A stretch of DNA of 64,000 bases from Octopus vulgaris. Taxonomy: Eukaryota. The notes under the pieces are model-generated. The model saw only the letters and a list, made by a program, of their open reading frames with translations. It did no database searches and was not told the DNA's origin. The stretch spans positions 17,980,001 through 18,044,000 of the forward strand of contig OX597841.1 in NCBI GenBank assembly GCA_951406725.2, read 5' to 3'. Shown here in pieces: positions 24,301-43,755 of the stretch; positions within the stretch are counted from its first letter, which is position 1, and every line of letters starts with the position of its first letter. Position numbers and translations under genes: made by a program.

Positions 24301-27300
24301 GAGAGAGTTTCACGGGAGCGATACCAGAATATGGACAAACACGAATGTTCGTGGAAACTTAATGAATTCGAATTATGTAAATTTGCATATAAGTGATAAT
24401 AGTTTGAATGAAAATTGCAGGAACTCAGAAGTTTGCGGAAATCAGACGAACACGAATCACAAAAAGGAGAAGGCAGAGGAAGAGAGGGAAAAAGAAGAAG
24501 ATGAATCTATGAAACCCGACAACAGCACGAGTGGTTTAGTTGAAACGGACCCTAGATGCCAACCCACTGAAGTTCCATTTCTGTACTATCCTGCAGCCAG
24601 CGAGAAAGAAAATGTTTATCACAGAAGCTGTTCCAAGATGAATAATCTTAAGGGTTGTTGTGAGGCTGAATTAGACGATGAACACACCAATAAAGATGTA
24701 CTCAGAAATGATGAATTTTATCTTAAAATCCAAGTAGATGAGAAGAGGAGGAATGAAAAGAAAGCAGGGAGTGTGGAAAGCAATGACTGCTATTTAGCAA
24801 AATCACAGTTTATTAGTCAATCCGTTGTTGATTCACTTAAAAGCAGAGATGTCCTGGAACACAGTAGAAATGACGCTGGTAAAACATGCTCGAATAACGC
24901 TAGCAGTTTTTACAATGATAGAGCTGTCTTCACCAATTCAGATGAGGATTATGAAAGAGCCGAATCCTTAATGAGCACCAACGTGAATAACAGAAATTCT
25001 GACGTAAGTGGAGAACAAACGATGAGAGTCAATCACGGAAATTTGTACGTAAGTGGAGAACAAACGATCCCAAATTACGGAAACTTGGATGTAAGCGGCC
25101 AACAACAAAACGGAGACTCAAACTTGAACGGAACTCGAATGAAAACAAGCTACAATAAACCTGAAGGAAAAGAAGAAGAAGAAGAAGAAGAAGAAGAAGA
25201 AGAAGAAGAAGAAGAAGAAGAAGAAGAAGAAGAAGAAGAAGACGACCAACAAGGACAAGAATGTTTGGAAGTCGACGATAGAAAGAAAAGTTTAGTTGGA
25301 ATGGAATGTCATCGTGATGTCGTTCTGTTGACGTGTAGTGATGCAACCATTGAAAGAACAAGCGTTTCTCACACAAGCAGTTCACAGATGGTCGTCTTTA
25401 ACGACGGCACTAACGCTGTCTCAGATTATGGTCCCACCCACGAAGATGTGACAAGAAATGATCGATTTCACCCTACAATCCTGGCTGGCGAAGAGGATCG
25501 AAGAAGCAAAACTGAAGGGGAGGAGTGTGTGGAAGTCGATAACAGCAGCATACGTTTAGAACCAGCAGACTCGTGTAAAGGTGTCACATGTAGATCACAG
25601 GCGAATATCCTTAACCAGAACAGAAATGATATTATCGAAGCGTGTTCAGGTGAGGTTCACAATTTCTGCAATGACGTCCCTATCCTCAAAAATGTAGAAG
25701 AGTTCAAAGAAAAAGTCCAATCCTTAAAGCGTACGAACTCAGATTATGGAAATCCGCACGCAAGTCAAAATCCGACGAAAGAAAATCCCAACAACCCAAA
25801 TGTATGTGGAAATCGAATGAATGCTAATTACGGAACATCAGGTGTAAATGGAAATTTGACAAACAAAAACTGTGGAAAGTCAGACATCACTAAAATTCCA
25901 GCAACAGAAGAAAATTGTGGGAAATCGAAAGAAAGTGGCAAACTGGTCGACGCAAATTTCAATGAGTTAAACGTAACTACAAATCAGATGAACACAAGTT
26001 ATAGAATCTCAGAATTAAGTGGAAAACTAACGAACGAAAAGCTCAGCATCACGGAAGACGGCAACGATGAGGAAAAAGAAAAATCTAATAAAATTCACAA
26101 AAGTACGAAAAATTTAGTTGAAACGGAACGGAAGCGTCATCTGGTTGAAGTTTCGTTAATGTGCAATGAATGCAACGGGAATGCAAACTTTTCTCACACA
26201 AGCAGTTCACAGACAAAGATTGTTAATGGCTGTAGTTGCACCAATAAAAATGTTGTCAGAAACGACGAGGAGAAGCAAAGAAGACAGAAGGTCGAAGAGC
26301 ACGAGAAGAACAATAAGAGAAGAAAAGCAGAGTGGAAGTGTCAGTCCGTTGTAAGTCTATCCAGAGACAGAGATGTTAGCATACACGGCTTACAGACGAA
26401 TATCATGAACTGTGGCAGAAACGGTTTTGTCCAAACGTTTGCGAATGATGTCCTTAATTTCTGCAATAATGTCCATGCAGTCGGCAATGTAGAAGAAAAG
26501 GAGAACGAATCAGGGCATTGTTCATCGAGGATAAACTCAAAATATGGAGATTCAGGCGTTTGTCGAAACCCGACGAACGCAGACGTATGTGGAAATTGGA
26601 ATAACACAAATGATGGAAACTCGGTAAATTCAAAATGCAAAAAATCAGAAGCGAACGGGAGTCAGACAAAAGCAGACGACAAAACCTCAGAAAAAGGAGA
26701 TAAGGAAGGAGAAGGGAAACTAGTAAGGAAAATCCTCAAAGGCAACGGTGAAATAGAAACAGACCGTCACACCATTGAAGGTCATTACGGAAATAATGCA
26801 GCCAGCGACAGAGCCAACATCTCTTACAGAAGCAATTCACAGATGGATAGATTTAATGGTGACACCAATAGTGACGTCACCAATGATCGATTTTATCCCC
26901 AAACCCAGGAAGACAAGGAAGCCCGAATAAGCCGAAAAGAAGGAGGACATACGGAAACTGATAACTGCCGCAGCACTTTAGCAAATCTTGGTTCCCTATG
27001 TCAATCAGTTGGTATTCCACTTATTTGCAGTGATGCCATAAGCAGCTTGCAGACGAATGTCTTAAATCAGATCAGTAATGACCGTGTCGAAGGGGGTTCA
27101 AATAACGTTTACTCCTTTTGCAATAATGTCCCTGCTCTCATCAGGGCACAAGATGACGAAACAAATCAAAGCTCAAACAGGATGAATGCAACTAACGGAA
27201 ACTTGGATGTAAATCGAATTACATCCAATTGCGGTAAGTCAAACGACATTGGGAAGCGGACGAATTCCATCTGCGGGAAATTAGAGGCAGATGAAAATCG

Positions 27301-28874
27301 GGTGGACGCCAGTTGTGGAAACTGGAATGTAAATAGAAAAAGAACGAGTGAATATTGTGAAAATCTGCACGTAAGTGGAGATCAACCGGGAAACGCAGAC
27401 GTAAGGGAACATTCTAGAAATTCGAATTACGTTTACTCAGATATAAGCGGGGATAGAGTGAATTTATATCACGGAAAATTAGAAAACGGAGATAAGGAAG
27501 GAGAAGAAATGTCAATGAAAATCCACAAAAGCAACAATGATTTAGTTGAAACGGAACCGGAGCGCCATCCAAGAGAGGTTCCATTTCCATGCAATATTAC
27601 AGGAAACGCGAAAGCAAACTTGTCTGAGGTAAACAGCTCAAAGGTGAATAGCTTCAACGGTTGCAGAGACGTTGTCTCAGATACTGGCCTCGTCATTAAA
27701 AATGCAACTAGAGATGATCGATTTTATCTGAAAACCATGCCTGGCGATGAAGATGAAAGGGAAAAGGAAGTGGAAGTAGAATACGTGAAAACGTTCAATA
27801 GCAACAGTTCTTTAGCAAAACTAGAGTTAAGATGTCAACCTGTTGATAATTCAACTATGGATTCGCATACCACAGTACATAAGTCACAGGAGGCCAGCTT
27901 AAGCAACAACAGCAGCAGTGATATCGTCGTTGGACGTTCGAATGTCAGTCGAAATTCTGGCAGGGCTATCCCTTTTCTTAACAATGCGGAAGATAATTCA
28001 CCAAGAAAGTTCTCAAACGGAACTAACCCAAATTACGGAAACTCAGACGTAATTGGAAATTTAACGAATAGAAATTACGGAAATTCGGAATATGAAGATA
28101 AGGATCAAGAAATATCTAAGAAAATCGACAACAGCAACAATTATTTAGGTGAAGCGCAACCTAAGCATAATCTCACGAAGGTCCCATTTCTGTGCAATGC
28201 TGCAACAAGCAAGAGGACAGACTTTCCTTACACAAGCAATTCACTGATTCACAACTCTCATGGCTGCACTGATGTTGTCTCAGATTATAACCTCATTGAG
28301 GAAGATGTGGCCAGAGATGATCGATTTTCTCCTAAAACCCAGGCAAACAAGGAGGCCCGAGGAGGTCAAAAGGAAGAAGAGTATGTGAAATCCGACAAGA
28401 GCAGAAACAGCTCTTTACCTACAATAAGTCCTGTTTGCCAGCCCGTGGCTAATCCACCTGGATGCAGTGATGCCATAAATTGCTCACAGAGCAGTAATGA
28501 TGCTGTGAAAAAGAGTTCGAATGACGTTCGTAGTTGCCGCAGTAATACTCTCTCTGTTCTCCACGATGCTAACGACGGTGGCTTAATAGGAGAGATATCG
28601 AACAGAACGAATAGAAATTGCAAAACCATGGATGCGGATGGAAATCGGACGAATGTAAAGAACCTCGCTCAAGATTCAAGTGGAAAGTCGACAAATGCAA
28701 GTTACGGAATCTCAGACTTAAATAGGAATCACGCGAATACACCGCTATTCCGGATTGAAAATCCCAATTGCTCCGATGATCAGCGTGTACCTGCGGCCAA
28801 TGACAAGACAGCCTCCTTCCCGATCATCCTCTCAATCGATCAGCAAGAATCTTTCTATTCTGATCTCCCACCAA
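24301..28874 (+). CDS. Giant internal-repeat exon of a RAD51AP2-like gene (first ATG at 24362)
   Basis: Uninterrupted 4.6-kb frame in a repeat-rich genome. It opens right after TGA at 24296-24298, at acceptor tttctcttatgaAG (24300), and has a consensus donor CCAA|GTAAGT at 28874 (phase 1). N/S/E/D/C-rich, with poly-Glu from (GAA)n at about 25171-25240. Confidence 0.85.
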
Positions 28875-29481
28875 GTAAGTATTATTATTTTGGCTGTCTT
28901 TACGTTCTGAGTTCAAATTCCGCCTTTCACCCTTTCGGGGTCGATAATGTAAGTACCATTTGAGCACTGGAGTCGATATCATCGATTTACTCCCGTCCCC
29001 TCTAATGCTGGCCTGACACCAAAATTTGAAAAGCAAAATATTGTTGTTGTTGTTCTTGTCATGTCAAGCGCATTTGAATCCCTCCACGTTTCCCTGCGAT
29101 CCATTATATCTGGAACCCATTTTTAAAAGCTTTGTATCCTACAACAGATGCTGCACATACGCTAGACAATGTTTCTTTTTCTGTCACATACTGGTCCCTA
29201 TAGTCATAATTAACGTCCAATTTTATCTTTTCTTCGCCAACACTGCCCGACAGACGACGGGCTTCTTTCAGTTTCCGCTTAGCACATCTTCTCACAAAGC
29301 TTCAGTCGGCCCTGAGCTATACTAGAACACACTCGCCGAAGGCGCTGCGCAGTAGCACTGAACCCAATGACCACAAGATTGAAAAGCAAGCTTCTAACCA
29401 CACAGCCACGTCTGTAAATAGTTTCTTCTTCATTGATTTTAGAAGAGAAATTCGTGTGTGTGTGTGTGTGTGTGTGTGTGT

Positions 29482-42900: not shown

Positions 42901-43636
42901 TATATATATATATATATATATAAAGAGAGAGAGAGAGAGAGAGAGAGAGAGAGAGAGAGAGAGAGAGAGAGAGCAAAGACACTAAGGTGTAATTTGAAAG
43001 AAATCCAGTCGCTATTTCTGGCAGGATGAGTGACCACATTGACACAGTAATCAAATATAGTGCAGATGTAAAAAAAAAAAACAGACAAAAATAAGTATAG
43101 AAATAAAGGTTTGTAGTTCAAATAGAGTTGGGTACCCTGTAAACACCCAGGAATAAAACATAAAGTGCTTATAACGACAGATAGATGTAAGTATTAAGAA
43201 ATCCTCCATGTTGAGGTTTATGACAAGTCCTGAAAATGTTCAAGTTTAATGCCTGTGTGGTGACATGGAAAAGTACCTGTACAGTGTCACATAAAAGTGC
43301 CATGAAAGAGTGTCACGAAAAAGTGTCACATAAAAGTGCCATGAAAAAGTGTCGATGTGGTGTCACATAAAAGTGCCCCTGTTATAGCATGTCAAAGCAG
43401 CCACGTGGTGCCATGTAAAAGTGCCTTTGTGGCACTACATACAGAACCCAGCACACCCTGTAAAGTGGTTGGCATTAGGAAGGGCCTCATCCAACCATAG
43501 AAACCAGATCAGACTGGAGTCTGGTGCAGCTCCCCAGTTTGCCAGGTCTGGTCAAACCGTCCAACCCATGCTAGCACGGACAATGGGCATTAAATGACGA
43601 TGAATAACCATAAAATTTGTTTCTTGTCTTCGGCAG

Positions 43637-43755
43637 CAATTGTTGATTCTCCAACAATGAATATTAGAAAGATTTTACGCATTGGGCTTTCAAAGCGACA
43701 GAAAATACCTGCACTACATCCATATATTAAGAGAAGAAGAATTGATGATGAGTGA
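43637..43755 (+). CDS. Terminal coding exon with a RAD51-interacting motif (IVDSPTMNIRKILRIGLSKRQKIPALHPYIKRRRIDDE*)
   Basis: Acceptor tttgtttcttgtcttcggcAG, phase 1. R(I/L)GLSxxxxxxxLHP is the C-terminal motif shared by RAD51AP1 and RAD51AP2. Too short to appear in the ORF track in this frame. Confidence 0.85.

Follow-up and report, generated by a model that had tools for sequence, protein, structure and literature searches.

Does the octopus carry, beside RAD51AP1, a second gene built like RAD51AP2, which has been published as vertebrate- and meiosis-specific and is required in mice for X-Y crossover? The question is raised by 64,000 nucleotides (nt) of the Octopus vulgaris genome (contig OX597841.1, positions 17,980,001 to 18,044,000; hereafter the window, meaning this whole stretch). 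Here three exons, 24362-28874 (4513 nt), 35661-35750 (90 nt) and 43637-43755, with GT/AG ends and introns of phase 1/1, join into an open frame of 1573 amino acids (aa). Octopus, like vertebrates, has both RAD51AP1 and a giant-exon gene ending in the same C-terminal motif, and the latter adds a divergent member to the RAD51AP1/AP2 motif family, its architecture being RAD51AP2-like. The window contains a 5'-truncated duplicate of this gene; the whole gene lies outside it. Judged from its sequence, the intact gene is likely a second RAD51 helper built like RAD51AP2. The features of the window that concern it are as follows.

24332..46729, forward strand: 22-kb duplicate of the 3' half of the gene, offset about 556.8 kb from the intact copy, introns kept
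24362..28874, forward strand: 3' part of the giant exon, 1,504 codons, N/S/E-rich; ATG 24362 is Met1411 of the intact gene
25170..25242, forward strand: (AAG)n poly-Glu tract, longer in the intact copy
35661..35750, forward strand: exon 2, 90 nt, phase 1/1, with W-K-K-P at 35693-35704
43637..43755, forward strand: coding part of exon 3, with R-I-G-L-S at 43678 (Site M) and L-H-P at 43714-43722 (Site C)
Rest of exon 3, forward strand: Y-I-K at 43723-43731, then a basic tail and TGA at 43753-43755
3508..24331, no strand assigned: unrelated multi-copy block, bluntly joined to the gene fragment

The coordinates, splice ends, phases and C-terminus of the three-exon model are as a first-pass annotation of the window had claimed, but its start (ATG 24362) and its extent as a whole product (about 1573 aa) do not hold. 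When the genome was searched with part of the giant exon, a copy of 98% identity was found on the same chromosome (C28), 557 kb further downstream, in an open frame of 2,992 codons. This intact gene (G000:C28:18556782-18579064) begins with ATG 18556782; its exon 1 contributes 8,863 coding bases (8.9 kb), and it encodes 3,023 aa, of which 1,410 additional N-terminal residues precede the window ATG in the same exon. Window positions 24332-46729 match G000:C28:18560982-18582146 with 98-99% identity in the exon and the non-repetitive intron sequence, and exons 2 and 3 encode the same residues in both copies. Upstream of 24332 the window reads into the block at 3508-24331, which contributes the first 11 codons (24299-24331) of the open frame of the 1573-aa model. 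The last 2.1 kb of this block have four other 98% copies on C28 (8.25, 8.84, 9.70 and 9.93 Mb), which continue as non-coding sequence. The window copy is probably no independently functional gene. Over 1,191 codons it differs from the intact copy by 12 synonymous and 23 non-synonymous codons and has no stop, which at so young an age is not informative. The coding exons of the intact gene comprise 2954, 30 and 39 aa, compared with 1083, 27 and 49 aa in human RAD51AP2 (PMC1636435), so the giant exon with small 3' exons proposed from the window is borne out.

However the second copy arose, the biology is to be assigned to the intact copy. On balance, we lean slightly towards an assembly duplicate: a second haplotype left uncollapsed and misjoined at 24331/24332, in an animal with one gene. 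The intact copy ends at an assembly gap (18582147) exactly where the similarity stops, the flank past 46950 and the first 400 codons of the gene are single-copy in the genome, further 98.6-99% duplicates occur at or near neighbouring gaps, and the 5' joint at 24331/24332 is blunt and lacks microhomology. However, the 54 kb preceding the window duplicate and the 113 kb following it contain no gap, the region is rich in 97.5-98.7% multi-copy blocks, and the two copies differ at 14 of 823 residues, comparable to the distance of either from Octopus sinensis (12 and 10). These points speak for the alternative, a real young segmental duplicate that would probably be a pseudogene. A possible false duplication is thus flagged in this assembly. 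Elsewhere on C28, a 5.6-kb direct duplicate of 98.6% flanks a gap on both sides (G000:C28:18268934-18280308) and a 23-kb inverted duplicate of 94-99% lies close to another gap (G000:C28:18078414-18163628); both are likely uncollapsed haplotypes.

The same three exons are joined in two NCBI models, XP_036371267.1 of O. sinensis (893 aa, 98% identical to the giant exon) and XP_014790363.1 of Octopus bimaculoides (1,278 aa, 80%). Both start at later ATGs than the intact gene and have an additional Ala where exons 2 and 3 meet. For this genome, a NAGNAG acceptor at exon 3 was rejected, since 43632-43633 reads GG, not AG. A short separate open reading frame from ATG 43594 was likewise rejected, since both NCBI models and the splice signals place these codons in the intron. 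As anticipated, the gene had gone unrecognised: both models bear the name 'putative uncharacterized protein DDB_G0282133', which is driven by composition and makes no reference to RAD51. The annotation is herewith corrected to a 3,023-aa gene, so far represented by these shorter 'uncharacterized' models.

Contigs of four sequencing runs were aligned to window positions 35000-36500 (1.5 kb around exon 2). In run X17, a 640-nt contig aligns exactly to 35661-35750, with 309 letters before and 241 after that lie off the window stretch; in run X19, a 3,770-nt contig aligns to 35661-35753, with 3,655 letters preceding the aligned part. Both contigs continue beyond exon 2 into non-intron sequence, and exon 2 is spliced. 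Counted back from the exon 1 donor, the 3,655 letters of X19 would begin near 25220, within the (AAG)n tract, a place at which contigs are expected to break; the link to the giant exon fits by length. X17 and X19 come from one study of a close relative, whose record does not state the kind of data; their allele at 35691 is that of O. sinensis, and they cannot separate the two gene copies. A contig of run X16, which is far larger and was taken to be DNA, crosses both exon 2 boundaries, and run X1 has no contig on exon 2, which is evidence neither for nor against splicing. The predicted junctions are thus backed by the NCBI models and by splicing at exon 2, while the exon-exon joints themselves are not visible in the 1.5 kb aligned.

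The RAD51AP1/AP2-type motif claimed for the C-terminus is well founded. The window holds a single match to R-[IL]-G-L-S-x7-L-H-P, a pattern that was absent from all of 100 shuffles. Across the genome (2.8 Gb), a looser DNA pattern matched 16 places, compared with 7 for a control pattern, and 5 of the 16 translate to the exact motif. In three of these five (one on C7 and both C28 copies) the linker is basic and a stop follows shortly; the remaining two have non-basic linkers and no nearby stop, and look like chance matches. In the tail, Site M reads R-x-x-L and Site C reads L-H, the H standing 13 residues after the R. In human RAD51AP1, R316, L319, L328 and H329 are needed for RAD51 binding, which their mutation reduces, and the matching RAD51AP2 residues L1134, L1143 and H1144 are likewise needed (PMC1636435). 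All four RAD51AP1 binding residues are present in the octopus tail at the same spacing. The Pfam profile PF15696 (RAD51_interact), put forward as a check, is the only family matching exon 3 (profile positions 22-39), at 16.7 bits (E 0.0086), under its gathering cut-off of 25 bits. The same profile had no match in the full-length NCBI proteins of O. sinensis and O. bimaculoides, and a search of the PDB with the last exon gave none. Exon 2 encodes W-K-K-P, possibly a degenerate Site-N/P-motif with an aromatic residue and Pro at +3; in the FxPP of RAD54B, the aromatic residue and the +3 Pro contact the pocket (bioRxiv 10.64898/2026.03.22.713441). A separate candidate third terminal exon with the motif was observed at G000:C1:180793320-180793373, where an AG acceptor is followed by KLGLSRLARLKQLHTPT and a stop; it scores 25.2 bits, just above the Pfam cut-off (genome E 0.07), and no upstream exons were recognised in 60 kb.

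The remainder of the protein consists of the giant exon, which is N/S/E-rich and net acidic (533 D/E and 331 K/R), with poly-Glu tracts. Seven degenerate repeats of about 200-290 aa follow from residue ~970 onward, spaced 201-475 residues apart; the window part holds five of the seven anchors, near 24707, 25457, 26882, 27713 and 28316. A BRC-like nature of the repeats was rejected, with no FxxA/FxPP in the window part and one FxxA in 2,954 aa. A Pfam scan of the giant exon, which covered all but the middle third of the intact exon, gave no family above cut-off, and about 98% of the protein has no recognisable Pfam family. Conservation is higher in the C-terminal tail than in the giant exon: between O. 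sinensis and O. bimaculoides, 137 of 819 residues differ in the exon and 4 of 70 in the tail (Fisher p=0.016), and the last 34 residues are invariant between them.

The terminal exon does not belong to a RAD51AP1-type transcript, a possibility that had been named as one that would undo the model. The best PF15696 match in the genome is on C7 (40.8 bits; the octopus RAD51AP1 exon scores 42.9). This multi-exon gene (G000:C7:23548600-23560131) has an exon with L-D-D-K-L and a UIM-like segment, acidic exons, W-N-P-P and the terminal motif. It matches the NCBI RAD51AP1 of O. sinensis (XP_029639088.1), which aligns along human RAD51AP1 of PDB 9qn8, weakly (E 0.019). The hallmarks of RAD51AP1, namely about 350-430 aa, L-D-D-K-L, a NUCKS-like body and WxPP, are found in the C7 gene and not in the giant-exon protein. 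By these features, the C7 gene is identified as canonical RAD51AP1, a separate gene on another chromosome. The motif is thus not new in cephalopods, being already annotated in RAD51AP1, which NCBI names in Octopus sinensis and Argonauta hians; RAD51AP1 is also reported from a sea-cucumber genome (PMC9700323). As for the putative partner, RAD51 is a multi-exon gene on C1 and a DMC1-like gene lies on C5. Of the seven RAD51 contact residues named in PMC12704761, six are identical in octopus RAD51 (residue 50, which is D50 in that paper and E50 in the PDB chain, F92, I100, T119, Q145 and D184) and one is changed (R95 to K). The docking groove is thus conserved in octopus RAD51. Further to these two genes, a RAD51 paralog lies in one open frame of 359 codons at G000:C4:88679083-88680159. 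We take this paralog to be RAD51B-like.

Is the giant-exon gene an ortholog of RAD51AP2 or an independent analog? Our preferred answer, held tentatively and with slightly less than even confidence, is a RAD51-binding analog derived from RAD51AP1: an acidic, repeat-built protein that would bind and stabilise RAD51-DNA filaments through a tail taken from the last two RAD51AP1 exons, in an event separate from the origin of vertebrate RAD51AP2. Of the 16 core residues, 10 are shared with octopus RAD51AP1 and 8 (counted by eye) with human RAD51AP1. Q-K at +7/+8 is common to the giant-exon protein and octopus RAD51AP1, where human RAD51AP1 has A-R. The two octopus genes also agree in a W-x-x-P encoded by the penultimate exon and in a last intron of phase 1. 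Human RAD51AP2 agrees with human RAD51AP1 at +7/+8. The 11 of 16 identical residues counted in PMC1636435 are compatible with this agreement. An independent origin is favoured because such grouping of the cores within lineages would result from two separate duplications. The repeat-built exon and the lack of homologs outside Octopus weakly favour it as well. Protein searches, which are weak tests where the motif has 20 residues and no proof of absence, gave homologs in octopods only (2 of 6 and 4 of 313 candidates), and a search of 1.84 billion representatives gave one match, the query's own protein. The first 700 residues of the intact gene gave none among 5236 candidates (lengths 586-1868 only), the ESM Atlas no usable match, and metagenome contigs no confirmed case among 598 pattern matches.

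A true RAD51AP2 ortholog is possible but rather doubtful. The RAD51AP1/AP2 split would then predate the protostome-deuterostome split, and the octopus protein would act in meiosis by the same mechanism; RAD51AP2 would have been overlooked in invertebrates owing to the too rapid evolution of everything except its last ~70 residues. With the same degree of doubt, a meiotic RAD51 partner encoded by a giant exon would have stood beside RAD51AP1 since the bilaterian ancestor, hidden among 'uncharacterized' low-complexity invertebrate proteins, and the octopus version would have grown to 3,000 residues by internal repeat duplication. In line with orthology, the three-exon coding layout given above is alike in the two genes; mouse, rat and chicken RAD51AP2 lack the last 11 aa (PMC1636435). 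The Y-I-K directly after L-H-P in the octopus tail matches the Tyr-Leu-Lys singled out as RAD51AP2-specific (PMC1636435), cephalopod RAD51AP1 having T-V-K, and a basic residue stands at -3 as in the 'SRPI' element of RAD51AP2 (PMC8754306). Furthermore, octopus has a separate RAD51AP1, itself formerly termed vertebrate-specific and now reported in invertebrates. Against orthology stand the searches just described, weak as they are for so short a motif, the grouping of the core with octopus RAD51AP1, and the internal repeats of the giant exon, of which none are described for human RAD51AP2 in the available part of PMC1636435. No conserved neighbour gene was identified in 660 kb around the locus, and no publication on an invertebrate RAD51AP2 was found in literature searched without most subscription journals.

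Several points weigh against an independent, filament-binding analog. The exon layout and Tyr-x-Lys match RAD51AP2 and not RAD51AP1, which favours orthology; co-evolution with RAD51 could mimic the grouping of the cores within lineages; and the origin question turns on a handful of residues, compared without a vertebrate RAD51AP2 sequence. As to binding, the PF15696 score of exon 3 is below the cut-off, and motif position +10 is a proline where human RAD51AP1 and RAD51AP2 both have lysine, a lysine whose change was neutral in two-hybrid (PMC1636435). W-K-K-P lacks the +2 Pro that the FxPP/WxPP consensus includes (bioRxiv 10.1101/2023.10.05.561053), and full-length human RAD51AP2 did not bind DMC1 in two-hybrid (PMC1636435).

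Filament binding by the giant-exon protein nevertheless appears likely from the motif. [quoted passage not shown] A further, weak contact of Site-N type, with RAD51 or DMC1, might come from W-K-K-P. In combination the three contacts would clamp adjacent protomers, and the resulting filament stabilisation would act during recombination. By analogy only, the giant exon may be a disordered spacer or scaffold, and a germline role would follow RAD51AP2. An opposite effect, which we consider improbable, would be that of a competitor like yeast Hed1, which has an inhibitory role: the protein would take the RAD51 N-terminal cleft, exclude RAD54/RAD54B or RAD51AP1 and damp RAD51 in favour of DMC1. RAD54, RAD54B, RAD51AP1 and Hed1 all bind this cleft (bioRxiv 10.64898/2026.03.22.713441), the genome holds both RAD51 and a DMC1-like gene, and with a net acidic giant exon a DNA-bridging role like that of RAD51AP1 is not evident. 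However, the octopus motif includes Site C and resembles RAD51AP1/AP2, of which RAD51AP1 stimulates RAD51 and RAD51AP2 promotes crossover; the latter is specific to testis and fetal ovary and stabilises recombination intermediates (PMC8754306). That the motif is a relic or chance match in a protein that does something else, such as a structural or repeat-protein role, seems equally unlikely. The sub-threshold Pfam score, about two chance exact matches genome-wide and the 98% of the protein without recognisable family would fit such a view, but the motif is C-terminal and has a last exon to itself, as it does in the two human genes. It also retains each of the residues that have been tested, and three Octopus sequences show no change in it while the remainder drifts.

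Other features of the window and its surroundings were also observed. Intron 1 contains a 454-bp near-perfect palindrome (31332-31786, 96% identical to its reverse complement), and an inverted partner of 83 bp lies near 31830-31915. On the reverse strand, an apparently intact long interspersed nuclear element (LINE) retrotransposon occupies 50942-56248, with one frame of 600 codons showing a weak zinc-knuckle match and another of 1,149 codons with endonuclease, reverse transcriptase and zf-RVT. At 56511-59819, on the same strand, a 1.2-kb element is present twice in tandem, the copies being 97.5% identical and having (ATAG)n arrays between them. Outside the window, G000:C28:18123885-18129287 holds two long adjacent open frames of 859 and 798 codons, one of which has weak beta-propeller-like Pfam matches only.

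From the presence of the same layout and motif in octopus it follows that the gene is much older than has been assumed, or else that a giant-exon gene was built twice on a RAD51AP1 tail, and either origin bears on the purpose of the large unstructured part. Compared with vertebrate RAD51AP2 (human 1159 aa; PMC1636435, PMC8754306), the octopus gene shares a giant first coding exon, an exon of ~27-30 codons, a last exon with the whole motif, Tyr-hydrophobic-Lys after L-H-P, the lack of any other recognisable domain and the coexistence with RAD51AP1. It differs in a protein 2.6 times longer, with seven degenerate repeats, poly-Glu tracts and proline at +10, and no sequence link to RAD51AP2 is detectable beyond the motif. 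RAD51AP1 is, in contrast, a protein of about 400 aa encoded by many small exons, and it has an L-D-D-K-L/UIM-like segment, tracts of acidic and of basic residues and a complete WxPP; the giant-exon protein was seen to have none of these. The spacing of Site M and Site C is nevertheless identical to that of RAD51AP1 (human PDB 9qn8/9qnc; octopus XP_029639088.1), the distance from W-x-x-P to the His is 46-47 residues in the giant-exon protein, 36 in octopus RAD51AP1 and 42 in human RAD51AP1, and the phase-1 last intron is common to the giant-exon gene and octopus RAD51AP1.

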